From a virus (lineage: Duplodnaviria; Heunggongvirae; Uroviricota; Caudoviricetes), in IMG/VR virus record IMGVR_UViG_3300045988_155182: DNA of 64,000 nucleotides; one strand, written 5' to 3'. A program made the translations under genes and the position numbers. The notes below the pieces were generated by a model, which did not search any database, was not told the origin of the DNA, and worked only from the letters and a program-made list of their open reading frames with translations. Below, piece by piece: positions 3,001 through 18,724 of this stretch; the first letter of the stretch is position 1, and the number at the start of each line of letters is the position of its first letter.

Positions 3001-4636
3001 GACTACGAACATTGAGGCGTTAGCCAAAACAAATATTGACCTGGCTCTTCGTCAAGATGAAGACCAGCACAAGCAGATGGTCAATAACGCGAAGATCGCA
3101 ACAACACAGAAAACCTTTGCTGATGATATGTCTGCAATGGCCACGAAGGTTGAGGAAATTCGCGTAGAAATTGGCGAAGACATTAAGGCCAGTATTCTGG
3201 AAGAGTCCACCGCTCGTGCCGATGGCGATGAAGCGTTGGCAAAGCGTGTCACTCAGCTGCAATCTAAGTTTGAAGGAGATATCAGCGCGGCGATTAGTAC
3301 AGAGCAGGAGGCTCGTACATCTGCCGATGAAGCTCTGACGACACAGATCACTCAGCTTGAGTCGAAAGTAAGCAACGATATCGTCGCAGCCATTAAGGAA
3401 GAGCAAGAAGCCCGAGCAACGGAAGATTCGGCTCTGGCAAGCCAGATCACCCAACTTCAGGCAAAGGTTGATGATGATATTTCTGCTGCAATACGTAGTG
3501 AGCAGGAGGCCCGAGCAAGCGGGGACTCTGCGTTAGCCAAACAAATAAACCAGCTTCAGTCAAAGGTTGACGGTGATATATCCGCTGCCATCACTCAGGA
3601 GCAGGAGGCCAGAGCAAGTGCTGACCAGGCGCTCTCACGAGAAATTAACAGCCTGCGAGCACAAACCGGAACTGATATTGCCGCAGCGGTTGCTGTAGAG
3701 ACAAAAGCAAGGACTGATGCCGATAGTGCATTGTCTACCCAGATTACGTCTCTTACAGCAAAAGCTAATGATCTCGAGGCGTCTCTTGCCAGAGAAACAA
3801 CGGCTCGTGCAGATGGTGATACCGCTTTAACAAAAGAGGTTTCAAATTTAAAAGCACAGACAGCGAAAGATATTAGTGCGGCCGTTGCAGTTGAAACGCA
3901 GGCTCGAACTGATGCTGACTCGGCGTTGTCGTCTCAGATCACCAAGCTGACCTCTCAATACAAAGAGGATATTAAAGCGGCTGTAGCAACCGAAACGAAA
4001 ACGCGTACAGAGCAAGATGCTGCATTGGCGACTCAAATCACAAACTTAGAGTCTCAAACGGCAGCCAACATTTCCGCGGCGGTAACAACTGAAACGACAG
4101 CGAGAACGCAGGCAGATAATGCTCTGAGTGGGCGAATCGATACTCTGAAAGCAGAGGTGGATGGAAATACCGCGACAATTCAACAGCAGGCAACAGCTAT
4201 TGCTGATACCAACAAAAAAGTATCAACCGCGTGGACGTTGAAAATGGAGACTTCAACGAGCGGAGGGCAGAAGTATGTTGCCGGTATTGCGCTTGGTATT
4301 GACACCACTGGGCTATCTCAGTTTTTGGTTCAGGCGGACAGGTTTGGTTTGGTCAACTCTGTTAACGGGAAGATCACAACGCCATTTGTTATCGAAAACA
4401 GTATCGCCTATATGAATGGAGCGTATATCAAGGATGGCACAATCACCAATGCAAAAGTAGGCGATCTGCAATCTACCAATTTTGTTAGCGGTAGATCTGG
4501 ATGGCGGTTCGGCAAAAATGGAACGCTTGAGATCAACGGTAATAGCGGCGGCAATGGGCGATTGGTTATAAATGGTCAGCGGATTGACGTTTATGACGAT
4601 AACAACGTCCTACGAGTAAGAATTGGCCGTCTGTGA
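2..4636 (+). CDS. Central tail fibre / host-specificity protein (lambda J-like); 5' end lies upstream of the window
   Basis: Reading frame is open to the window edge, so the ATG at 29 is not the true start. N-terminal two-thirds carries J-like motifs (SEQFGS...RVPSNYN, FGCTSRGQAHRVGLWL). C-terminal third has a tandem coiled-coil repeat stalk, then a J-type distal domain (KYVAGIALGID...SQFLV). Confidence 0.85.
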   Translation, partial: ADDTVNSRAMAAILDLLGEGVIGGLVNGARSIFIDDLPIVNEDGSSNFSGITWDFRDGSQDQTPMSGFDFVETPKSVNIQLKKTHYVTVSIDNDEADRVRVIMKFPSLRSIDKKTGDTNGTTVEYKFQIANGDSTFVDVVAEGEKSVGIKLTAKKTGVYYRSYELKLPKPGRAYKVRVVRITDDNSSQYLYNDTWVDSIGEIVDTPMNYPNSVLVGLKVNSEQFGSTMPSRSYLVRGLKIRVPSNYNESSNTYAGVWDGTFKLLSSSNPAWILFDLLTNARYGLGQYVSESMIDLGQLYQIGRYCDEEVDDGFGGKEKRFAINTQITSRQDAYRLIQDIAGAFRGMVFWAGGMVNIMQDSPSDPVMMFTNSNVKDGLFTYKGSARKDRPSVALVTYNNKEDGYKQNIEYVEDQDAMRRYGERKTEVVAFGCTSRGQAHRVGLWLLYTARMESDVITFTAGLDASFLMPGETVLIQNKYRAGKRNSGRIVAFTKNSVTLDAPVSLAKGGCFIRILNQEGKIVERDVLETGENITKVTFSKALSSAETPVLNGVWTITEPDLEPMRVRIVNIAQGETPGSFDITAVENNPSKYEAIDNGATLIPQNTTVLDPTYSKPSNLQITEGTYLSSPGNLSVKLTATWEGKSPEYWISWRRSDENNVSNWQSARVTEEQYEIVNVAENGRYDFQLYAVSFNGKKTEIISTVYQVLGTMTPPDAPTSLTAVGDYRNVILNWVNPDSVDLDHINVYASQTNNLDTAKLIAESASTTFTHAGLGDSETWYYWVRASNKRGMLSPPNSNLGTEATTRDVLSFLTGKITSSELGQALLEDINSKASQEAVDELNEHINQSVESLEGAVNDVKEDIAELDKQFSDNLADFEIKFNERSDALENAQTELKGEVSATIDKVNEAFEKIDATDAAIVEIENTVSEHDKALANTVEAIKAARDEAAALIAKESEARVEGDAANAKQLEVLQSTVEESSAAVEEMKKTVAEVDRASAELTTNIEALAKTNIDLALRQDEDQHKQMVNNAKIATTQKTFADDMSAMATKVEEIRVEIGEDIKASILEESTARADGDEALAKRVTQLQSKFEGDISAAISTEQEARTSADEALTTQITQLESKVSNDIVAAIKEEQEARATEDSALASQITQLQAKVDDDISAAIRSEQEARASGDSALAKQINQLQSKVDGDISAAITQEQEARASADQALSREINSLRAQTGTDIAAAVAVETKARTDADSALSTQITSLTAKANDLEASLARETTARADGDTALTKEVSNLKAQTAKDISAAVAVETQARTDADSALSSQITKLTSQYKEDIKAAVATETKTRTEQDAALATQITNLESQTAANISAAVTTETTARTQADNALSGRIDTLKAEVDGNTATIQQQATAIADTNKKVSTAWTLKMETSTSGGQKYVAGIALGIDTTGLSQFLVQADRFGLVNSVNGKITTPFVIENSIAYMNGAYIKDGTITNAKVGDLQSTNFVSGRSGWRFGKNGTLEINGNSGGNGRLVINGQRIDVYDDNNVLRVRIGRL
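3202..4190 (+). repeat. About 10 tandem 99-nt (33-aa) coiled-coil repeats inside the J-like gene
   Basis: Repeating unit E(Q/T)(E/K)AR..AD.AL..QIT.L.(S/A)KV..DI(S/A)AA(I/V) read directly from the translation. Confidence 0.8.
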
Positions 4637-4667
4637 TGGTGGAAAAAAAATTTTATATCGGTAAAAA

Positions 4668-4686
4668 TAGGTAAGTATTTACTTAA
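4668..4686. promoter_or_regulatory. Dispersed palindrome copy (TAGGTAAGTA-TT-TACTTAA) between the J-like and stf genes
   Basis: TAAGTATTTACTTA core; the same core recurs at 23354-23375. Confidence 0.45.
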
Positions 4687-4729
4687 TGGCGGGCAAGGAT
4701 AACCCGCCAAATCAAGGAGCATATTCAAC

Positions 4730-7700
4730 ATGTGGTACAGGGAAGGTACTATCACATTTACACAGGGTAGCAATACTCTGGTTGGGGCAGGGACAGCCTG
4801 GAACGTAACAGCTAATGGTGTGTTGCCGGGGATGATCGTCATTGGCCCCGACAATAAGCTGTATGAGATCAAGCGCGTAATAAGCGATACGAATATTGTT
4901 CTCTCAGAACCTTATACCGGCGAAACTCAGTCTGAGGTTCCGTGCCGAATCATTACGACCTATGAAGGCGACTTAACACAGTTTAGCGCGCGCTTTACTG
5001 CGCTAATGTCGCGTATGTCGGCTGATTCCAAGTCCATGCGCAGTTGGTTGACTGCGCTGGATGAGGTGACAATCGAGCGTGAAGACGGTACAGAAGTAAC
5101 CGTTAAGCCGCTAATGCAGATCGTCAACGAGCACAACGAAAACGTTGAGTGGTATAAAAATAACACTGACGCGATTGATGCTGCTGGCGACAAAGCTCGT
5201 GAGGCGGCGGCCAGTGCTGCCGCAGCAGCAGAAAGCGCCAATACCGCTGGAGAAAAAGCCTCTCAAGCGTCTCAAAGTGCATCCGCTGCGGCATCCTCAC
5301 AAAGTGCCGCAAGTGCGAGTGCAACTGCTGCGAAAAAATCTGAAACGAATGCCGCAGCGTCACAACAATCAGCAGCCACTTCTGCATCCACCGCGACCAC
5401 GAAAGCGTCAGAAGCTGCCACCTCAGCCCGGGATGCGGCGGCCTCAAAAGAGGCAGCGAAATCATCAGAAACGAACGCATCCTTGAGCGCCAGTAGCGCA
5501 GCTTCCTCGGCAACGGCGGCAGGAAATTCCGCGAAGGCGGCAAAAACGTCCGAGACGAACGCCAGGTCTTCTGAGACGGCAGCGGGACAGAGCGCCTCAG
5601 CTGCGGCAGGCTCAAAAACAGCGGCTGCGTCGTCTGCCAGTGCCGCGTCAACAAGTGCCGGGCAGGCCTCAGCCAGTGCCACCGCCGCCGGAAAATCGGC
5701 AGAAAGTGCCGCATCGTCTGCTTCAACAGCCACAACGAAGGCTGGCGAAGCCACTGAACAGGCCAGCGCAGCAGCGAGGTCTGCTTCCGCAGCGAAGACA
5801 TCCGAAACGAACGCGAAAGCGTCGGAAACCAGCGCAGAATCCTCAAAAACGGCTGCCGCATCGTCCGCCAGTTCGGCGGCGTCATCGGCATCATCTGCGT
5901 CTGCTTCAAAAGATGAGGCGACCAGACAGGCGTCAGCAGCGAAGGGCAGTGCCACGACGGCATCCACGAAAGCAACAGAGGCGGCAGGCAGTGCGACGGC
6001 AGCATCTCAGAGCAAAACTGCTGCTGAATCCGCTGCGACCCGTGCGGAAGCTGCTGCTGATCGTGCTGAAGAGATTGCCGGTGCAGTTGCGATGGAAGAC
6101 GCAAGCCTTACAACTAAAGGTGTTGTGAAACTTAGCAGTGCTGTTGATAGCACCAGTGAATCGCTGGCCGCAACGCCAAAAGCAGTTAAAGCAGCCAATG
6201 ACAATGCGAATAGCAGGGTGCCATCTAACCGAAAAGTTAACGGAAAAGCACTGACTGCGGATATAACATTAACGCCGAAAGATATTGGTACTTTAAATTC
6301 AGTAACGATGTCTTTCTCTGGCGGGGCTGGGTGGTTCAAACTGGCTACGGTTACCATGCCACAAGCGAGTTCCATCGTTTACATCGCATTGATTGGTGGC
6401 GCTGGTTACAACGTCGGTTCCCCACATCAGGCAGGCATTTCAGAACTGGTTCTACGAGCAGGCAATGGAAACCCCAAAGGAATTACCGGGGCTTTGTGGA
6501 AGCGTACAGCCGTCGGATTAACGAATTTCGCCTGGATCAACACATCCGGCGATACATATGATATTTACGTTGAGATTGGCAATTATGCGACTCGTGTAAA
6601 TATCCATTGGGATTGTACTGCAAATGCGACAGTTTCTATTTATACATCGCCAACATATTCAGCGAGTAAGCCTTCCAGCGTTACCGATGGTGTTGTTTAT
6701 ACGATGTATAGCTCACATCAGAAACCGACGCCGTTAGATATTGGAGCACTGCCAACAACCGGAGGAACAGTTTCAGGTCCGTTGTCTGTTACAGGTGGAT
6801 TAACTGGTTCATTGAATGGTAATGCAAGTACAGCCACGAAATTGCAGACGGCAAGATCTATCGGTGGAGTTGTTTTCGACGGTTCTGCAAATATTAACCT
6901 TCCAGGTGTAAACACTACGGGTAATCAGAACACCACTGGTAATGCTGCAACTGCTACAAAACTTCAGACGGCAAGAACTATCGGCGGCGTGAGCTTTGAT
7001 GGTACTGCGAATATTAATTTGCCAGGTGTTAATACGACTGGTAATCAGAACACAACGGGCAACGCGGCTACTGCTACGAAGTTGCAGACTGCGCGTACTA
7101 TCAATGGGGTGTCGTTTGACGGCTCGGCAAATATTGCCTTGTCGCCAGCAAATATAGGTTGCCCGGCATCTCCTACTGGTTGGCTTGTAACAGGTGATAA
7201 TGGAGCTTCAATAACAACAGAGCAATTAGTGACTCTGCTACGAGATAATGGTGCTTTTAGTGTAAAGGCATGGATAGCGCGTTGTGCCTGGGCGTATGCA
7301 AATAGTGCATCCATACCAGACAGCGAAACAGGATGCGGCATTATTCCACTGGCTGGCGCAGTTATTGAGGTATTTAATAAAGGCAGTAGCTCAAACAATT
7401 ATACGATTCGTATAACAACGGCAACAACGACAGGTGTCTCTGGCGCACTCACTAATGCGGAGTTTGTCTATGTGTTTAATGGGACGACCTATTCACCAGG
7501 ATGGCGCAGAGCGTATAACACTAAAAACAAGCCTACTGCGGCTGATGTCGGAGCTTTACCACTATCTGGAGGGGCGTTAACTGGCGGATTAACTGCTGCT
7601 GGCGAGATAATTTCCAAATCGGCGAATGGTCTGCGCATTGCCTACGGAAACTACGGATTCTTTATCCGAAATGATGGATTGGACACATATTTCATGCTAA

Positions 7701-9181
7701 CAGCATCAGGAGACACATTAGGTTCATGGAACGGTTTGCGACCTATTACAATTAATAATACCAGCGGTTCTGTGTCCATTCGTAATGGACTCAATGTTAC
7801 TGGCGGCATCAATGGTAGTTTGAACGGTAATGCTGCAACTGCAACAAAACTGCAAACAGCACGCACAATAGGCGGAGTGTCATTCGATGGCTCCGCCAAT
7901 ATCAACCTGCCGGGTGTAAACATTGCTGGTAACCAGAACACTACCGGTAATGCAGCGACAGCGACCAAGTTGCAGACAGCATGTACTATCAACGGCGTCT
8001 CGTTTGATGGTTCTAAAGATATTGAACTTAACCCACGGTCTATAGGCACGATCAACTCCACAACAATGTCATTCAGCGGTGGTGCTGGTTGGTTCAAATT
8101 AGCAACGGTAACCATGCCACAGGCGAGTTCTGTTGTTTCAATTACGTTGATTGGTGGCTCGGGATTTAACGTGGGGTCACCTCAACAGGCAGGTATATCT
8201 GAACTTGTTTTGCGTGCAGGTAATGGTAATCCGAAGGGGATTACTGGTGCTTTATGGCAGCGCACATCGACAGGGTTTACAAATTTTGCCTGGGTCAATA
8301 CATCTGGTGATACTTACGATATTTACGTTGCAATCGGAAATTATGCGTGGCGTGTAAATATTCAATGGGATTATACCAGTAATGCCAGCGTGACGATTCA
8401 TACGTCACCAGCATATTCTGCTAATAAGCCGGAAGGGTTAACGGACGGTACAGTTTATTCACTCTATACGCCATCAGAGCAGTTTTATCCGCCTGGCGCA
8501 CCAATCCCGTGGCCATCAGATACCGTTCCGTCTGGTTATGCCCTGATGCAGGGGCAGACTTTTGACAAATCTGCCTACCCGAAACTTGCAGCCGCTTATC
8601 CGTCAGGCGTGATCCCTGATATGCGTGGCTGGACGATTAAGGGCAAACCCGCCAGTGGTCGTGCCGTATTGTCTCAGGAACAGGACGGCATTAAATCGCA
8701 CACCCACAGCGCCAGCGCATCCAGTACGGATTTGGGGACGAAAACCACATCGTCGTTTGATTACGGAACCAAATCCACGAATAACACCGGGGCGCATACC
8801 CATAGTATTAGCGGGACTGCAAATAGTGCAGGTGGGCACCAACACCATAGTTCTGGACCATATGCGAATTCTAATGATGGTGATCTCTTTCCTAACGGTT
8901 ATACCCAGGTTTCAGCCACAAACAAACCAGTTGTACCACGGCAAGGTGGCCAAGGTATGGCCCGTTTATCAGGGAAAACATCATCAGATGGAGCACATAC
9001 CCACTCGTTATCCGGTAGTGCCGCAAGCGCAGGTGCTCACGCACACACTGTTGGTATTGGTGCTCATACGCACTCCGTTGCGATTGGTTCACATGGACAC
9101 ACCATCACCGTTAACGCTGCTGGTAACGCGGAAAACACCGTCAAAAACATCGCATTTAACTATATTGTGAGGCTTGCATGA
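4730..9181 (+). CDS. stf: Side tail fibre protein (lambda Stf-like)
   Basis: 1483-aa ORF with RBS-like context. Ala/Ser-rich SETNA-type low-complexity N-terminal region, internally duplicated domains, and a C-terminus with the Stf/T4 gp37-type His boxes ([52 protein letters not shown]). Confidence 0.9.
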
Positions 9182-9978
9182 TTACGCTCATTCTTTCTGC
9201 ACCAGTAACAGAAATGGCTGAAGCATTTAAGCGGGTATTTGCAAACGCAGATAATGTGAATATTGTCGGAAAGCCATTTGAAACAATCAGAGAATTTGAC
9301 TGCATGGTAAGTGCGGCAAATAGTTTCGGCCTGATGGATGGCGGCGTTGATGCCGCCATTACCGCATTCTTCGGTACTCAGTTACAGTCCCGCGTTCAGA
9401 ATCATATTCTTCGTGAATATCTAGGCGAGCAGCCTGTAGGTTCTGCATTTGTTATTGAAACGGGGCATAATCATCACCCCTGGCTGGTACATGCGCCAAC
9501 AATGCGTGTTCCGCTGACAATTGACGGAACAGACTCTGTATATAACGCAACCTGGGCCGCTTTACTTGCCATCTTTCAGCACAATAAAAACGCAACGACA
9601 GACAGGAAAATAAAGACGGTGGTATTCCCTGCAATGGGGGCCGGATGTGGTCAGGTTCCGTTTGAAAGCGTTGCCCGGCAGATGAAGCAGGCGTGGGATA
9701 ACTTTAATAAAAAAACAGAAGCAATTAACTGGGAATATGCACAATCTCGCCAGTCGGCAGTATTTAGCACATATGCATACTGTCCAGGTAATTCTGTTTG
9801 CCGTTATGCGGATACTAAATATATTGGCTGTGGCGATTCCCGGACGTATTGCTCACGTTCAGGGCAGATCTGTATTAACCCTGAACATCAGGCTGATGAT
9901 GTACTGATACAACATCAGGCTAATAACCGGTTTCGCCCTGGTTCGCATATACACCGGATTAATCCGGAAAATACCTGA
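9178..9978 (+). CDS. Macrodomain (ADP-ribose binding/processing) protein; C-terminal tail looks like a degraded Stf 3' fragment
   Basis: ATGA overlap with the stf stop. Macro signature [19 protein letters not shown] plus [14 protein letters not shown]; the last ~14 codons ([13 protein letters not shown]) resemble the Stf His-box end. Confidence 0.65.
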
Positions 9979-10066
9979 GGCAATATCGCCACTGGCGCAT
10001 ATAATCACGGAAGGGGCATCACTGTTGGTGCTCACACCCATACACTCAATAAACAACATACTGTCT
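9937..10066 (+). pseudogene. Remnants of a side-tail-fibre 3' end (His-box coding fragments) between the macrodomain gene and tfa
   Basis: ggttcgcatatacaccgg...ggaaaatacc and ggtgctcacacccatacactc resemble the stf 3' sequence at 9036-9140 (GSHGH / GAHTH coding). Confidence 0.35.
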
Positions 10067-10088
10067 TTGATATTAAGTAGAGGTGAAC

Positions 10089-10670
10089 ATGGACTTCACA
10101 ATGAGTGAACAACCACGGACCATAAAAATTTATAATCTGTTGGCCGGAACCAATGAATTTATTGGTGAAGGTGATGCATATATTCCACCTCATACGGGGC
10201 TGCCAGCTTATTCTACGGATATAGCGCCACCGGATGTACCTGCTGGCTTCGTGGCCGTATTCAACAGCGAAAATAAATCATGGAGTCTCGTTGAAGACCA
10301 CAGGGGTAAAACGGTCTATGACGTGGAATCAGGGGACGCGTTGTTTATTTCTGAACTTGGGCCATTACCGGAAAATGTCACCTGGTTATCACCGGATGGG
10401 GAATATCAGAAGTGGGACGGCACATCCTGGGAGAAGGATGAGGAAACAGAAAAATTGTTTCAGGTACGGGAAGCGGAAGAAACAAAAAAAAGTCTGATGC
10501 AGGTAGCCAGCGAGCACATTGCGCCACTTCAGGATGCTGTAGATTTGGAGATTGCAACGGAGGAAGAAGCATCGTTGCTGACTGCATGGAAGAAGTATAG
10601 AGTTTTATTGAACCGCATTGACACATCAACGGCACCGGATATTGACTGGCCAACAATACCAGCAGAGTAA
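10089..10670 (+). CDS. tfa: Tail fibre assembly protein (lambda Tfa-like)
   Basis: AGAGG RBS 6 nt upstream of the ATG. Sequence [35 protein letters not shown]...[21 protein letters not shown] matches lambda Tfa as I recall it. Confidence 0.9.
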
Positions 10671-12254: not shown

Positions 12255-12776
12255 TTATTCTTCGAACAATTTTTCGATAGATTTTGTAGGATAGAACAAA
12301 GAACGCTCGTTGTTACCAACCAGCTGGATAAAGCCTAAACTTTTATAAAACGCCTTGGCTTTGTCATTTAACGCCTCAACGAAAAGTCCATGAATGCCTA
12401 CAGCAAGAGATGCATTGTACACAACGCGCATTGCATGTGTTACAAGCATTGAGCCAAATCCTTGACCTTGAAGGGACTTGTCCAAAGCCAGCCTACCCAA
12501 AGTAACACTTGGAACATTCCGATAAGGAACCTTCTTTTGTTTGCTTCTTGAAGGTAAGGACTCCTTTTCAAAACAACTACCTGACAAAGTGTAATATCCT
12601 AACACTTTTGGCCTTTCTTCTTGAGTGCAAAGCACATAAGCACGAAGAATTTTTCCCTCATGCTGCCTTTTTAAGTGGTTGGCTAAAAAGGCGTTTAGTG
12701 ACTCTTCGCCGCAATCAAAACCGTTTAGATCATAATCTTTCTCTCCAGAGAAAATCTCTATCGTTGTATTGCTCAC
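12255..12776 (-). CDS. GNAT-family acetyltransferase toxin (TacT/AtaT-like)
   Basis: Acetyl-CoA binding motif QGQGFGSMLV; ~170 aa; immediately downstream of a DUF1778-type small ORF with a 7-nt gap. Confidence 0.75.
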   Translation of the reverse strand: MSNTTIEIFSGEKDYDLNGFDCGEESLNAFLANHLKRQHEGKILRAYVLCTQEERPKVLGYYTLSGSCFEKESLPSRSKQKKVPYRNVPSVTLGRLALDKSLQGQGFGSMLVTHAMRVVYNASLAVGIHGLFVEALNDKAKAFYKSLGFIQLVGNNERSLFYPTKSIEKLFEE

Positions 12777-12783
12777 GAGTAAA

Positions 12784-13053
12784 CTACTCCATGCTTTTCA
12801 GACGATCAGCAGCTCGTTTCAGCTTGTCGTTCGGTGCCGGAGGATTGCTTATAGCGTCCATAACCAGATTCCAGGATTCTTCATTCAGAACTAGTCTACG
12901 GTGTTGCTCTATAACTTTCACGGCACGTTCAGATGCACTGCTAACCATAAACTGAGTAATGCTCTGGTTAGACATTGCGGCAGCTTCCTCGATGATGCTT
13001 TTATCGTCATCGGTTAATCTCAAATCGATGCGCTGCTTTTTTAGTGCTGACAT
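12784..13053 (-). CDS. DUF1778-type (RHH) antitoxin partner of the GNAT toxin
   Basis: AGGAGG RBS 5 nt upstream of the ATG at 13053; ~89 aa; operon order antitoxin then toxin. Confidence 0.65.
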   Translation of the reverse strand: MSALKKQRIDLRLTDDDKSIIEEAAAMSNQSITQFMVSSASERAVKVIEQHRRLVLNEESWNLVMDAISNPPAPNDKLKRAADRLKSME

Positions 13054-13371
13054 GTATTCCTCCTGATGGCCGTGATGTAGGAAGGCCATCAATCTCCTCT
13101 GTTCAAACTGAGTTTTCGACTCAAAAATTACTTTAAAAGGCTATAGCCCATTACGTGTGCATTATCAAATTGTGTACGGCATAACACCGTACTTGTAATA
13201 TAGAGGTCATTGTTACTTTTTTCAACAGACAAATACAAGCTATGATTGCCAATTGTTAATCACAACCTACCATTTAACCTTTACACCGCAGCCGTAGGCA
13301 TTTAGGCTATATCACATATAAGAAAACAAGTTGTTTCAGACGATAATTATATACGCAAAGGGAACTCTCCA

Positions 13372-14040
13372 ATGACCAAGATCTTTGTGGTTGGCGGCAC
13401 AAAGGGCGGGCCTGGCAAATCCACCGTTGCCCAGCAAATTGCCGTTTGCCTGAAAGTCAAAAAGAAGAAGAAGGTTTATATTACCGATATAGATATTCAG
13501 CGCACGACAACGAGCTGGTGTGAAGACCGTCGACAGAACGAAGACCTTGAGCTGATTCCTTTTGCATACGTTCAGGATGACATCATTAAGCACCTAAAAT
13601 CGCTTCAGGGTAGAGCTGAGTTTGTAGTGGTAGATGCTGGTGGCTTCGACTCCGAAATTCAGCGACAAGCGATGCTGATGGCCGACGTTATCATTATCCC
13701 GCTTCGTCCTAAGCGTCGTGATTTGAAATCTCTGCGTGATATCGATCCTATTATCGACAATGTTCGTAATGTAAACGATAAAGTGAAGGTCCGCGCGGTC
13801 ATGAACCAGTGTCCGGCTTTGCCATCACAAGTGTCTCGCATTCTGGCGGCTAAAGAGATTGTTGAGACGTTTGGCATCGAGTCTGCGCCAGTCAATCTAT
13901 ATAACCGCAACGTCTATGATGATGCGGAAGAGTCTGGTCGTTCTATCTTTGAAATGACCGGTAGCGAGCGCGACAAAAAGGCGGAAGCCGAGTTTGAAGA
14001 ATTTGTAGATTATCTGTTGAGTCTGGAGGAAAAAGAATAA
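13372..14040 (+). CDS. parA: ParA-family partition ATPase
   Basis: Deviant Walker A GGTKGGPGKST; ~220 aa; followed by a small RHH-like partner. Confidence 0.85.
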   Translation: MTKIFVVGGTKGGPGKSTVAQQIAVCLKVKKKKKVYITDIDIQRTTTSWCEDRRQNEDLELIPFAYVQDDIIKHLKSLQGRAEFVVVDAGGFDSEIQRQAMLMADVIIIPLRPKRRDLKSLRDIDPIIDNVRNVNDKVKVRAVMNQCPALPSQVSRILAAKEIVETFGIESAPVNLYNRNVYDDAEESGRSIFEMTGSERDKKAEAEFEEFVDYLLSLEEKE

Positions 14041-14399: not shown

Positions 14400-14443
14400 T
14401 TTTATTGAGGTGCTGCTTGGCACCTCTTTCTATAGGTTCCCTA

Positions 14444-15163
14444 ATGCTCTACAAATATATTGGAAGTGAAGATTCGCAAAAAGTGTTACGTAACCTCAAA
14501 CGGTTTGTAGAGGACGGCACTATCTCTGCTAGCGCACCTTCTTCATTCAACGACCCATCAGAGTTCAAAGTTTCGATAACGATGGGAGGTACAGAAGTGG
14601 AGCGCCGGAAACACTTTGAAGACAATGGATGTAAGGATTTTTCCTTTGAAGACTGGGATGCTGTAGCTCCTGAAGCTGCAAAATCGTTGGCTGTGGATTT
14701 GCGGAAAGAATCATTAGGGGCTTTTGGTGTGGTGTGCTTGTCACCAAACGAAGATAACATCTTGATGTGGTCACATTACTCAGTGTCGCATAAAGGTTTC
14801 TGCATAGGCTTTGATGATGATTTTGTTACCTCTATTGAGGGGTATCACAGCTTTGATAATGTGAAATATATACCTTCTGTTCCCGTGTTCGATGAAGTTA
14901 CAGATGAGTTTAAGGTACTTTTTGATAAGCTCTTTTTCTACAAGCACGAATGCTGGAAATATGAGGAAGAACAAAGGGTTATTACTAAAAAAATAGGCGC
15001 TCAGGCATTTGATAAGAAATATATTAGAGAGATCATTCTTGGACATAACGTTTCTCCTGAAGTAGAAGAATATGCCCGGACACAGCTAGACACGAGCATC
15101 GAGGTTTACAAAATGAGTACACCTGATGATGGTTATCTTCTTGTCAAAGAAAAGCTGAAGTAG
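14444..15163 (+). CDS. DUF2971-like protein of unknown function (candidate defence/accessory gene)
   Basis: N-terminal LYKYIGSED...L...FNDPSEF signature typical of DUF2971-type proteins (from memory). Visibly A+T-rich coding compared with neighbours. Start could be TTG 14405 or ATG 14444. Confidence 0.55.
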   Translation: MLYKYIGSEDSQKVLRNLKRFVEDGTISASAPSSFNDPSEFKVSITMGGTEVERRKHFEDNGCKDFSFEDWDAVAPEAAKSLAVDLRKESLGAFGVVCLSPNEDNILMWSHYSVSHKGFCIGFDDDFVTSIEGYHSFDNVKYIPSVPVFDEVTDEFKVLFDKLFFYKHECWKYEEEQRVITKKIGAQAFDKKYIREIILGHNVSPEVEEYARTQLDTSIEVYKMSTPDDGYLLVKEKLK

Positions 15164-15229
15164 CTCCAGACTTTCCTCAAATGATTATGTTGGGCGCTTT
15201 TCTTATTGAACTGGTTAGTGAGGCTAATA

Positions 15230-16402
15230 ATGGATTTGTTCTCAACCAAAATAGCAAAAAACAAGCTGCACGAATCTTTTAAACAGATTTATCAAGATAA
15301 TACATATGCTCCAGTAAGAGAAGTGATACAGTCGTGGGGGCGTGGGTTACTGGAGCGTAGCGGTGAGCAGACTAAATTCGTTAAAGAGTTTCAGACAACC
15401 TTCAATTCCGCCTTATGGGAATTGTATCTGAACGAAATGTTTATTCGTCTCGATTATTCTGTCGACTACACAAAAGACAGTCCCGATTTCTGTGTTACTA
15501 CACCGTCAGGCTACCAGTTTAACGTCGAAGCTGTGATATCAGATCGGCCACATAATCCACCTGCAGGTGTTCTTTTTAGCGAATCAAAATTCAAACATCA
15601 ATCAACGCTAAAATTAATCGGAAAAATCAAAGACAAACATGATCTTTTTACAGGAGTTAATGGCAAAAAATTCCCGTACTCTACGATGTCTCATGTAGTT
15701 AATAAGCCGTTTGTTCTGGCGCTTGCACCCTTTGACTCCGATTTATCATTGTCTCAAAATAACACAATCATCAATCGAGTGTTGTTTGGCATTGAGGAAC
15801 CTACCACCAGAAATTTGGTGACTGGCAGCCAAACTAAAGTTACCTCAATCAAAAAGAATGAAGACGTTGAAATTCCATTAGGTATATTTACTAACGACTC
15901 ATATAAAGAAATAAGTGCGGTTATTTTCTCCACCACCGGCACTTTTGGAAAAGCCGTGGTTCAAAGCGGTATCGGTAGATATGTAAGGTCAACACGATAT
16001 CGAGCCATTGATGTGAATGATTTTATCGCCAATGAAGGGATGAAAAACGAGGGAAAGCACACACAAAGGATAGGACCTGATCATTTCATCACTACATATC
16101 GGCATTTTTTAAATAACGAAGTCACTGGTGCGGATATTGTAGTTTGTCATTCCACTGCTCATGAAGAGACGCACTTTGACGGCCTTCATATTTACTACAA
16201 TCCTTTTGCGACAGTGCCACTGGACAGAAATATTTTCTTCCCCCCAGAGATAACTCATAATTTTTACGATATGGAAAAAGAACAGTCTGTTCAGAATCAT
16301 CCTGATGGAGCGCTGGTATCTAGACAGGTTTTTGAACCAACTAGAGCACATTTTAGGTATATCATGAAACATTGGTTTCCAGGCTTTCTAAAAGATGTTT
16401 AA
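15230..16402 (+). CDS. Hypothetical 390-aa protein, partner of the DUF2971-like gene
   Basis: GAGG RBS 6 nt upstream of the ATG; co-oriented 66 nt after the DUF2971-like gene; followed by a strong terminator; no motif I can assign. Confidence 0.6.
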   Translation: MDLFSTKIAKNKLHESFKQIYQDNTYAPVREVIQSWGRGLLERSGEQTKFVKEFQTTFNSALWELYLNEMFIRLDYSVDYTKDSPDFCVTTPSGYQFNVEAVISDRPHNPPAGVLFSESKFKHQSTLKLIGKIKDKHDLFTGVNGKKFPYSTMSHVVNKPFVLALAPFDSDLSLSQNNTIINRVLFGIEEPTTRNLVTGSQTKVTSIKKNEDVEIPLGIFTNDSYKEISAVIFSTTGTFGKAVVQSGIGRYVRSTRYRAIDVNDFIANEGMKNEGKHTQRIGPDHFITTYRHFLNNEVTGADIVVCHSTAHEETHFDGLHIYYNPFATVPLDRNIFFPPEITHNFYDMEKEQSVQNHPDGALVSRQVFEPTRAHFRYIMKHWFPGFLKDV

Positions 16403-17383: not shown

Positions 17384-18724
17384 ATGACCGAACTTTGCCA
17401 TACAGGACGCGGGCTGTCCGAAGAGTTTGATGAAGATTTTCAGAACAGATTGACGGCCTATTTTTGTCGTGATCACGAGTTTCTTACTCGTGCTGGAGAT
17501 CTGGTTGTACCTAGCCAATTTGCCAATGCGGCCAATGCCATATTGGTTAATATGGTTTCGGGCTATTACCGTATGTACAAGAGCGCGCCCTCTTCATCTG
17601 CGATTCTGGATATGCTTAAGCGTGCGAAACGCGATAAGACTATCCGTGAGGAACTATTCGCCGATGTTGTTGCTGCGTTTAAGCGCATCCTTGCAGAAAA
17701 ATTGTCTGATACCTCGTACATGGTTGACCAGGTATCAACCTTCGCAAAAAGCGTAGCGTTTGATGATGCTCTGATTAAGGCTGCTGAACTGAAAGAGAAG
17801 GGCGACTTTCAGGGGGCGATGGCAATCATGGCCAAGGTTCAGCAGATTGGATCGAACGAAGCGACCGGAATCTATGACTACTACACCTCCGCAAGTGAGC
17901 GATTGAAAGCGCGTGAATATGAGGCTTCAGAGGAGTATGTGCCAAACAGCATTACAACTGGACTCCCTCTGCTCGATAGGTTGCTGTACCAAAAAGGCTG
18001 GGCGAAGCGTGAAATGGTGCTCTTCATGGGGTTCGCTAAATCCGGTAAATCGACCGCAATGGGTGAGTTTTCCATAAACGCAACGCTTGCTGGCTACAAT
18101 GTTCTGTATCTCTCGCTGGAGGTTCACACCAACATTTTGTCCGACCGCTTTGATGCAAGATTGTCGGAGACGGAAATGTCCAAGCTGGTGGAACGGCGCG
18201 ATGAAGTTCATCGTAAGTTGGCAGAGTTGGGAGCCACTAAGGGGATTGGTAGTTTGTGGGTTGTTGAGCGTCCGTCAGGAAGTATGTCACCTGCAGATCT
18301 GGACCGTATGCTTAACAGTATGAAAGCCAATGGCATGGTGCCTGACATGGTTGTTGTCGACTACGCAGATTTGATGCGTGCCAGTTATGACCTTCGTGAT
18401 GATCGCGCCAATATTCGTAGTATCTACACCGATTTACGTGCTCTTTATGACAAGCATAACGTTGCTGGGATCACGGCATCGCAGACAAACCGTGAAGGTG
18501 GCGCGTCAGAAGTTGCCACAATGATGCACGCCGCCGATAACATCGAAAAAGTACGTATTGCTGACCTGGTAATAACGATCAACAAAACCGAAGAAGAAGA
18601 AGCGAAAGGAGAGGCTCGTCTCTACTTTGCTGGTTCACGTAACCAGCAGGGTGGGATCAGCATTCGCGTTAAACAAAACCTCGAACAAATGCGTTTCATT
18701 GAGCGAATCTTAGACGTTACCTAA
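17384..18724 (+). CDS. Replicative DNA helicase (DnaB-like RecA-fold domain)
   Basis: Conserved AAAGGAAAGCACATG initiation context; Walker A GFAKSGKST, Walker B VVVDYADLM, ASQTNREG motif. Confidence 0.75.
   Translation: MTELCHTGRGLSEEFDEDFQNRLTAYFCRDHEFLTRAGDLVVPSQFANAANAILVNMVSGYYRMYKSAPSSSAILDMLKRAKRDKTIREELFADVVAAFKRILAEKLSDTSYMVDQVSTFAKSVAFDDALIKAAELKEKGDFQGAMAIMAKVQQIGSNEATGIYDYYTSASERLKAREYEASEEYVPNSITTGLPLLDRLLYQKGWAKREMVLFMGFAKSGKSTAMGEFSINATLAGYNVLYLSLEVHTNILSDRFDARLSETEMSKLVERRDEVHRKLAELGATKGIGSLWVVERPSGSMSPADLDRMLNSMKANGMVPDMVVVDYADLMRASYDLRDDRANIRSIYTDLRALYDKHNVAGITASQTNREGGASEVATMMHAADNIEKVRIADLVITINKTEEEEAKGEARLYFAGSRNQQGGISIRVKQNLEQMRFIERILDVT

Follow-up and report, generated by a model that had tools for sequence, protein, structure and literature searches.

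Some macrodomains encoded by phages are proven counter-defence enzymes, as recently established for the AdfM proteins (PMC13309987; bioRxiv 10.1101/2025.11.20.689424). Macro genes of phages often lie among morphogenesis genes, and their products have been proposed to be packaged (Iyer et al. 2022, PMC9503650). In Pseudomonas phages, alleles of the side tail fibre and its chaperone determine the activation of type II Thoeris, a defence that signals through His-ADPR (bioRxiv 10.64898/2026.06.04.730250). In the fibre protein gp37 of T4, histidines of the His boxes from three chains coordinate iron, and folding depends on these histidines (PMC6957217). Here we describe a macrodomain gene (the macro gene) that lies between the side tail fibre gene stf and the gene tfa in a 64,000-nt stretch of the IMG/VR virus record IMGVR_UViG_3300045988_155182. 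This stretch (the window) is an SSU5/pHCM2-like phage-plasmid, and several E. coli plasmids match it at 99.6% identity. The macro gene is a member of PHROG 2613 within the distal tail-fibre cassette. We propose, at a probability of roughly 0.45, that its product is a late binder or hydrolase of adenosine diphosphate (ADP)-ribose which counters a host response based on nicotinamide adenine dinucleotide (NAD) or ADP-ribose, and that its C-terminal tail may oligomerise or tether the protein.

A truncated macro gene at the stf-tfa junction

A first reading of the window, made from its letters alone (the sequence-only reading), had assigned a macrodomain to an open reading frame (ORF) at 9178-9978. 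The ORF is present on the + strand and encodes 266 residues, including the peptides that were quoted from it, and a hidden Markov model search bore out its identity. The product matched all 118 positions of the Pfam Macro profile (PF01661) over residues 44-169 with 68.8 bits (gathering cut-off 22, E 5e-19). Macro_2 matched weakly, and these two were the only Pfam matches of the protein, with neither Collar nor Caudo_TAP among them.

The 801-bp ORF is a truncated allele of a 903-bp gene. Close relatives, the SSU5-like phage-plasmid pTB212 and a P2-like E. coli O157:H7 prophage, have a version that extends from an ATGA overlap with the fibre gene to a TAG 8 nt before the tfa ATG and encodes 300 residues; PGAP names it "macro domain-containing protein". 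A four-way DNA alignment of the window, pTB212, the O157 P2-like prophage and phage Chuche showed a single G-to-T change at 9976, which turns the GGA of the relatives (Gly267) into TGA. Because the window differs from the 300-residue relatives by this one change and 9979-10080 remains in frame, what had been read as a spacer and as two degenerate stf fragments (9937-9978 and 10027-10047) is the 3' coding part of the macro gene. The motifs reported in those fragments are real (GSHIH at 9940-9954, GAHTHTL at 10027-10047). The reading of them as "recombination scars" did not hold, since they belong to the in-frame, conserved C-terminal coding part of a family of 262-300 residues, cut here by a nonsense mutation. 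The mutation at codon 267 costs only the variable last 34 residues, and all universally conserved elements are kept. The identical 266-residue protein was found on 12 public contigs, the longest of 110,032 bp, so the truncated form is a circulating allele and not a sequencing error. The features of the locus are as follows (all on the + strand).

4730-9181, +: stf, side tail fibre gene; ORF of 1483 residues with Pfam Gp34_trimer and Collar matches
8990-9178, +: last 63 residues of Stf; a His-box array beginning GAHTHS, then a near-invariant terminus
9178-9181, +: ATGA overlap of macro start and stf stop (GCATGA); translational coupling; the same 4-nt overlap in 62 of 62 related loci
9178-9978, +: macro gene as present here; 266 residues, ending at the premature TGA
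9178-9762, +: macrodomain proper, residues 1-195 (Pfam match at residues 44-169, 9307-9684)
9319-9351, +: loop 1, N48-x6-G55-G56-V57-D58 (N48-SFGLMD-G55); predicted MacroD-type ADP-ribose-binding/catalytic motif
9637-9660, +: loop 2, G154-A-G-C-G-Q-V-P161; predicted phosphate-binding glycine loop, and the frameshift site in plasmid pLAO18
9763-9906, +: four-cysteine (Cys4) module, residues 196-243; family-specific
9781-9783, 9799-9801, 9850-9852 and 9871-9873, +: the cysteines C202, C208, C225 and C232, followed by H237-Q238-x-x-D241
9940-9954, +: first His box, G255-S-H257-I-H259; kept in the truncated allele
9976-9978, +: premature stop TGA; GGA (Gly267) in relatives, single G-to-T at 9976
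9979-10080, +: orphaned rest of the ancestral ORF, in frame; corresponds to the last 33 residues of the 300-residue proteins
9994-10008, +: degenerate box GAYNH within the orphaned rest
10027-10047, +: intact His box GAHTHTL within the orphaned rest
10078-10080, +: ancestral stop TAG at the end of the orphaned rest
10080-10670, +: tfa, lambda-type, 193 residues; Shine-Dalgarno GAGGTGA (10080-10086), ATG at 10089; Pfam Caudo_TAP E 4e-44

Other copies of the gene are disrupted as well. In pLAO18 (locus L004, 3179-4090), an independent inactivation was found, a +1 frameshift in the G-run that codes for the GAGCG loop (ATGGGGGCC). Three E. fergusonii plasmids (H62-H64) gave matches of the same length as pLAO18 and have no macro coding sequence listed, and their macro gene is probably disrupted in the same way. 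Two further disrupted copies were found at loci L075 and L086.

Conservation was assessed with 58 unique family sequences and an alignment of divergent members. In loop 1, N48, G55, V57 and D58 never vary and G56 is found in 57/58 sequences; loop 2, which aligns to GTGVGGLP of TTHA0132, has G154 and G158 in every sequence and G156 in 57/58. H105 of the macrodomain is conserved in 57-58/58. Behind the macrodomain, the four cysteines, H237 and Q238 are present in 57-58/58 sequences and D241 in 55/58. The protein is thus not the "stand-alone" macrodomain it had been called, since it also carries a family-specific Cys4 module and His boxes (GxHxH) of the type found in fibres. The Cys4 module is probably a small metal-binding beta domain. 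An AlphaFold2 (AF2) model predicted beta strands in this region, with a predicted local distance difference test score (pLDDT) of 57-73. A profile search of 1.84 billion protein representatives returned only the family and its fragments, and the idea that the Cys4/His-box module was borrowed from another family was rejected at the sensitivity of HMMER. One match, in Salmonella phage SEN34 (L005, 5001-5325), is 60.7% identical to residues 184-244 and lies between an acyltransferase gene and int. It was rejected as an independent Cys4 module because it is a gene remnant; with no fibre-Tfa junction anywhere near, it seems to be left over from an earlier cassette.

The tail beyond the Cys4 module varies in length and sequence and holds one to three His boxes per protein. 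Only the first box is conserved family-wide (G255 in 52/58, H257 in 56/58, H259 in 57/58). In Salmonella variants, the tail boxes follow the 9-residue period of the adjacent fibre (GAHTHTIDT-GAHNHTIQT). Natural variants of only 253-274 residues are intact. The full-length AF2 model had a pLDDT of 56 and the C-terminal model one of 47, both too poor to be informative on the tail, with the His-box part unstructured as a monomer.

Selection differed along the protein. Over 11 pairs with finite dS, the ratio of nonsynonymous to synonymous substitution rates (dN/dS) of the macrodomain was 0.05-0.35, mostly 0.05-0.19. The Cys4 module had ratios of 0.14-0.52 over pairs with finite dS, mostly 0.14-0.32, with dN = 0 in one pair, and the tail had ratios of 0.25-1.35 over pairs with finite dS. 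The tail frame is nevertheless open in at least seven divergent tail types, whereas a random stretch of 57 codons of the same composition is free of stops in only 4% of cases. The open frame reflects either a weakly constrained function of the tail or a need for ribosomes to terminate beside the tfa start.

The relation of the tail to the fibre was examined at the protein and DNA levels. The macro tail aligned to the C-terminus of Stf with a score of 59 against 34 ± 6 for shuffled sequences (z ~4; 3/2000 shuffles as high), and the Cys4 region showed no similarity to Stf (527/2000 shuffles as high). A local DNA alignment of the macro tail with the last 300 nt of stf was not significant (68/1000 codon shuffles as high). 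A tblastn search of 50,697 INPHARED phage records with the macro tail recovered no fibre with a similar tail, its sole match being the orthologue in Chuche. A recent duplication of the stf 3' end was rejected on these grounds. Nor do these results support a recent recombination scar, given the insignificant DNA similarity and the lack of a donor fibre in the records searched. The His boxes of the macro tail may have come from a fibre gene in the distant past.

The cassette, the family and its clade

The macro gene is coupled on both sides in relatives. Its ATG overlaps the stf stop TGA (GCATGA), in line with the translational coupling that the sequence-only reading had noted. A programmed frameshift fusing fibre and macro protein was dropped as a candidate, there being no slippery heptamer at CTT GCA TGA. 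On the other side, the ancestral TAG abuts the Shine-Dalgarno sequence of tfa. A mechanical ORF call places the tfa start at GTG 10083, but the true start is most likely ATG 10089, judging from the annotated start of homologous tfa genes and the conserved N-terminus MDF[RT]MSEQ. In lambda, nothing separates the two genes, the stop of stf overlapping the start of tfa (TAATG), and lambda-like phages align to the window as two pieces, one on each side of the macro ORF; 9178-10088 is therefore an insertion relative to lambda, in agreement with the sequence-only reading. For the macro gene, neither a promoter nor a terminator of its own was detected above chance (promoter-like sites, 3 where 4.2 were expected; terminator-like sites, 1 where 2.7 were expected). 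No foreign composition was found either, the G+C content being 44-49% across the gene, like that of its flanks.

The upstream fibre protein itself is unusually long at 1483 residues. It contains an Ala/Ser-rich low-complexity stretch of ~330 residues, a domain of ~200 residues in two copies and repeated shorter units, and these duplications suggest two receptor-binding modules stacked in one fibre. The sister plasmid NZ_CP020118.1 (L094), compared over its positions 4473-10505 with window 4730-10670, has a backbone 99.6% identical to that of the window and another distal fibre cassette. There, a 5.2-kb fibre gene followed by a gene for a gp38-like "receptor-recognizing protein" replaces fibre tip, macro gene and Tfa, a clear whole-cassette swap of host range among SSU5-like phage-plasmids. 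Since the backbones are nearly identical and the cassettes are not, fibre tip, macro gene and Tfa behave as an exchangeable cassette.

By profile comparison, the protein falls into PHROG 2613 (function unknown), with a match of E 3e-143 between residues 1-270 and positions 1-271 of the 274-position profile. At 90% clustering, it has 1704 relatives of 262-300 residues, from Escherichia, Shigella, Salmonella, Citrobacter, Enterobacter and Erwinia; databases call them either "macro domain-containing protein" or "phage tail protein". Members include STM2588.1n of Gifsy-1, Salmonella phages SEN4 and SEN5, and Escherichia phage Chuche. Synteny was examined at 80 loci from IMG/VR and others from annotated records, with the upstream fibre resolvable in 62. 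Every genome examined had the order fibre (Collar/His-box), macro gene, Caudo_TAP Tfa. These genomes were SSU5-like plasmids, a P2-like prophage, Chuche, the lambdoid Gifsy-1, an Erwinia prophage of myovirus type and an Enterobacter Mu-like prophage, so that the carriers comprise lambdoid, P2-like, Mu-like and SSU5-like phages. All 62 loci with a resolved fibre share the ATGA overlap together with the same fibre terminus or a close variant of it, and in all intact loci the macro gene ends within -11 to +30 nt of the tfa ATG.

The gene is not present in all relatives as a component of the tail. When 5426 complete E. coli genomes were searched with window positions 9100-10100, 3604 matched partly, and 127 held at least 80% of the query, macro gene included. 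The macro gene is a minority feature and not a universal tail component. It is flanked by the two most conserved blocks of the cassette, the fibre terminus and the Tfa N-terminus. Homologous exchange of fibre genes is classical in P2, Mu, P1 and lambda and would take the macro gene with it, and a position between conserved blocks of the most exchanged phage cassette accounts for the spread of the gene across the four phage types.

At 30-38% identity, more distant homologues occur in jumbo, Rhizobium, Sinorhizobium and Microcystis phages as stand-alone macro proteins that have no C-terminal extension. Early or metabolic regions encode most of them, including one close to an RNA 2'-phosphotransferase gene. 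Another is encoded beside an S74-peptidase fibre gene. Two of them, in Klebsiella phage FBKp24 (L095, 4914-5513) and Rhizobium phage P106B (L091, 3905-4453), are labelled "tail protein" or "tail assembly-like protein". Given the early or metabolic surroundings of these genes, the labels look transferred from other annotations and were rejected as independent evidence of a tail role. They probably spread from the name "phage tail protein" of the enterobacterial family.

The nearest sequence neighbours in the PDB were TTHA0132 (the best, E 3e-6), MacroD-type proteins, macroH2A1.1 and YmdB. DarG (5m31) was matched only at E 0.23 with a single sequence and was absent at E ≤ 1 with the family profile. 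In PADLOC, no model was matched by the macro protein at E ≤ 1, whereas T4 Tk.4, used as a control, matched DarG at 1.3e-9 and in the PDB matched both DarG 5m31 and TARG1. An hhalign comparison of the macro family with T4 AdfM (Tk.4) gave a probability of 1.5%. Foldseek, run with the low-confidence model (mean pLDDT 56), returned 157 PDB matches at E ≤ 1e-3. The best 50 of these were all macrodomain structures or macrodomain-derived designs at probability 1.0, and the top match of this low-confidence model was yeast Ymx7 (1njr), an ADP-ribose-1''-monophosphatase. The match to Macro_2 (PF14519), at positions 81-159 of 290, stayed below the gathering threshold (23.9 bits against 27), and the best NCBIfam matches, also sub-threshold, were an ADP-ribose-binding protein and an O-acetyl-ADP-ribose (OAADPr) deacetylase. 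The loop-1 motif of MacroD, N-x6-G-G-[VLI]-D, is present. The loop-2 motif G-[VIA]-[YF]-G is not: its place is taken by G156-C157-G158-Q159, which aligns to GVGG of TTHA0132 and lacks the aromatic residue, and we therefore do not class the protein as a canonical MacroD enzyme. By sequence comparison, the macro family is MacroD/Appr-1''-pase-like and falls outside the DarG clade, and mimicry of DarG was rejected on these grounds (PADLOC, PDB neighbours, hhalign). At this distance, no alignment to DarG was reliable enough to place its catalytic lysine (K80 in T. aquaticus DarG, K84 in TARG1).

Other cargo of the window lies downstream of the tail module. A TacAT-like toxin-antitoxin pair (12255-13092, - strand) lies shortly after it. 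A variable island, bounded by the genes of a ParA-like ATPase (13372-14040) and of a DnaB-like helicase (17384-18724), holds two anti-phage defence genes (14405-16402, + strand). In sister phage-plasmids, this island carries a LEM-3-like GIY-YIG gene (pTB212) or a P-loop NTPase gene (AR_0104).

12255-12776, -: GNAT acetyltransferase toxin, next to the TacA-type DUF1778 antitoxin
12784-13092, -: TacA-type DUF1778 antitoxin, paired with the GNAT toxin
14405-15163, +: defence gene, PADLOC PDC-S31 E 4e-38, Pfam DUF2971
15206-16402, +: defence gene, PADLOC PD-T7-5 E 2e-139

Proposed function and its alternatives

We suggest the following course of events. The macro gene would be translated late, coupled to the fibre and with no promoter of its own, in amounts similar to those of fibre and Tfa; because of this arrangement, its product is expected to accumulate alongside them. 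The macrodomain would bind ADP-ribose and most likely hydrolyse ADP-ribosyl esters or related derivatives of ADP-ribose, and would so undo or blunt a late-acting host response based on NAD or ADP-ribose. By analogy with T4 gp37, metal may bind to the Cys4 and His-box tail and the tail may join the protein into oligomers, as in fibre needles; it might also tether the protein to the fibre or to Tfa. Both the role of fibre alleles in Thoeris activation and the frequent placement of phage Macro genes among morphogenesis genes lend plausibility to counter-defence.

Several points weigh against this proposal. Late expression is unusual for a counter-defence enzyme. With the loop-2 motif G-[VIA]-[YF]-G replaced by G-C-G-Q, the protein may bind only and not hydrolyse, and oligomerisation and metal binding are conjecture because both AF2 models are of low confidence. 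The His-box tail evolves near-neutrally in some pairs (omega ~1.3), a natural variant of 203 residues (L088) has no such tail, and the tail frame could be kept merely to preserve the translational coupling of tfa. The independent inactivations, in the window, in pLAO18 and the E. fergusonii plasmids, at L075 and at L086, mean that the gene is dispensable, at least in the plasmid-prophage state. A full-text literature search (macro domain with tail fibres, prophages, Gifsy-1 and Thoeris) found no study of the family.

A bolder version of the proposal, which we regard as a long shot, is that the cassette carries its own antidote. Fibre tip and Tfa would be the kind of late structural proteins that trigger NAD-derived signalling or ADP-ribosylating abortive infection. 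The co-translated macrodomain, held at the fibre by its metal-stapled His-box tail, would act where the ADP-ribose signal or modification arises, by destroying or sequestering it. If this were true, trigger and antidote would be inherited as one exchangeable unit, and the protein would be the first ADP-ribose enzyme to be structurally part of a receptor-binding module.

Among the explanations that compete with a late counter-defence role, one is a metabolic or RNA-repair helper: a phosphatase of ADP-ribose-1''-phosphate (Appr-1''-p) or an OAADPr deacetylase that clears NAD by-products late in infection, for example those of Tpt1/KptA or sirtuin reactions, with the position in the cassette being accidental hitchhiking. 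The Foldseek match to Ymx7, the weak Macro_2 match and the sub-threshold NCBIfam matches all point this way, as do the annotation of the phiM12 homologue as Macro_Appr_pase (cd02900) and the position of the FBKp24 homologue ~2 kb from the RNA 2'-phosphotransferase gene. We consider it unlikely, since the Macro_2 score is below threshold and the structural model poor, and since it leaves the Cys4 module, the His boxes and the invariant coupling to fibre and Tfa unexplained. Moreover, no Tpt1-like or sirtuin gene was found among the PGAP products listed for the sister plasmid AR_0104, which cover approximately window positions 1-50,000; the window itself was not searched systematically.

Alternatively, the protein could be an enzyme or adhesin displayed on the virion, with the His-box tail co-assembled with the fibre tip or docked on it via Tfa and the macrodomain, placed on the side tail fibres, acting on or binding a ribose-phosphate surface structure during adsorption. 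This would be in keeping with the strict position between fibre and Tfa, the coupled translation, the fibre-type His boxes with their shared 9-residue period, the gp38-type adhesin in the equivalent slot of the sister plasmid's cassette, and the related macro gene of Microcystis phage Mae-JY35 beside an S74-peptidase fibre gene. However, the type of macro tail varies independently of the receptor-binding part of the fibre, since one and the same tail is paired with several fibre tips, and the variable tail can be dispensed with in some variants (L088 and the allele of the window). The "tail protein" labels of homologues lend no help, for the reason given above. We know of no ADP-ribose-like substrate on the enterobacterial surface. 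The SEN4/SEN5 paper was checked for virion proteomics and has none. Taken together, display on the virion seems quite improbable.

It is about equally doubtful that the macro gene of this window is a decaying passenger, in which the nonsense mutation marks pseudogenisation and the only role left is to be translated as a leader ahead of tfa. The stop comes earlier than in the relatives, disruptions arose independently in pLAO18, probably in the three E. fergusonii plasmids, and at L075 and L086, and tfa has a Shine-Dalgarno sequence of its own. Against this, the truncated protein keeps the macrodomain, the Cys4 module, HQxDD and the first His box, intact natural variants are of similar or smaller size (253-274 residues), the allele persists on 12 contigs, and the family-wide dN/dS of ~0.1 indicates that the gene is normally under selection.

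A version built on the sequence-only reading, that a stand-alone macrodomain was dropped in by recombination, leaving degraded copies of the stf 3' end, and strips DarT-type ADP-ribose from phage DNA as a DarG mimic, is very improbable: the insertion relative to lambda is real, His-box motifs do lie downstream of the macrodomain and DarG-like phage macrodomains do counter DarTG2, but the supposed scars are the in-frame C-terminus of a 300-residue protein conserved down to 60% identity, their DNA similarity to stf is not significant with no donor fibre in the 50,697 phage records, PADLOC gave no DarG match (AdfM control 1e-9) and hhalign 1.5% against T4 AdfM, the PDB neighbours are of MacroD/TTHA0132 type and not DarG/TARG1 (DarG 5m31 only E 0.23), and the ability to remove thymine-linked ADP-ribose belongs to the DarG/TARG1 clade.

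Comparison with known systems

The gene itself is not new, having been present in public annotation for years, for example in Gifsy-1. What we did not find described before is the whole combination of a macrodomain, a unique Cys4 module and fibre His boxes in one protein, its invariant coupled position in the fibre-tip/Tfa cassette across four phage types, and its placement outside the DarG clade. If the protein is an enzyme against a late defence based on ADP-ribose, host-range cassettes carry immune-evasion cargo along with receptor specificity, which would bear on predicting and engineering phage host range. Were it located on the virion, it would represent a fibre-borne enzyme of a new kind. 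Because the gene is often met in prophages that have been studied well, among them Gifsy-1 of Salmonella LT2 and P2-like prophages of E. coli O157:H7, genetics is immediately possible.

Among described proteins, the anti-DarT2 AdfM group (T4 Tk.4, PhiKZ gp104, PhiPA3 gp108) shares with the macro family that it is a phage-encoded macrodomain, and AdfM has been shown to reverse host ADP-ribosylation. AdfM belongs to the DarG/TARG1 clade, whereas the macro family falls outside it. AdfM genes are short, stand-alone and located outside the fibre cassette (T4 tk.4 encodes 155 residues and lies among small tk/vs/regB genes), whereas the macro family is late, coupled to the fibre and extended by the Cys4 module and His boxes. 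The MacroD, AF1521, YmdB and TTHA0132 types (PF01661) probably share the fold of the macro family, and they share its N-x6-GG[VLI]D pattern and a glycine-rich loop 2. In the macro family, however, G-C-G-Q takes the place of G-[VIA]-[YF]-G in loop 2, the domain is preceded by ~40 residues that add a strand and a helix at the N-terminus, and a C-terminal region of ~100 residues follows it that is found in no other macrodomain protein. The Appr-1''-p phosphatases Poa1p and Ymx7 resemble it through the top structural match, the partial Macro_2 match and the annotation of phage homologues, but the Macro_2 score is below threshold and the likeness rests on a low-confidence model.

On the side of the tail, the His-box needles of fibres (T4 gp37, lambda Stf, P2 H, Mu S) share the GxHxH motif and, in Salmonella variants, the 9-residue spacing. 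Unlike them, the macro protein has no shaft, no Collar, no N-terminal region for attachment to the virion and no conserved fibre terminus, and its one to three boxes are preceded by a Cys4 module that fibres lack. The gp38-type adhesins ("receptor-recognizing protein") occupy the same slot after the distal fibre gene, as in the sister plasmid, but they have no sequence or domain relationship to the macro protein, and the macro gene still has Tfa downstream. Finally, like the tail-region morons lom and bor of lambda, the macro gene is an extra relative to lambda and is present in a minority of related phages. It differs from them in having neither promoter nor terminator of its own and in being coupled on both sides within the late operon, so that, in contrast to a moron, its expression from the prophage is not expected.

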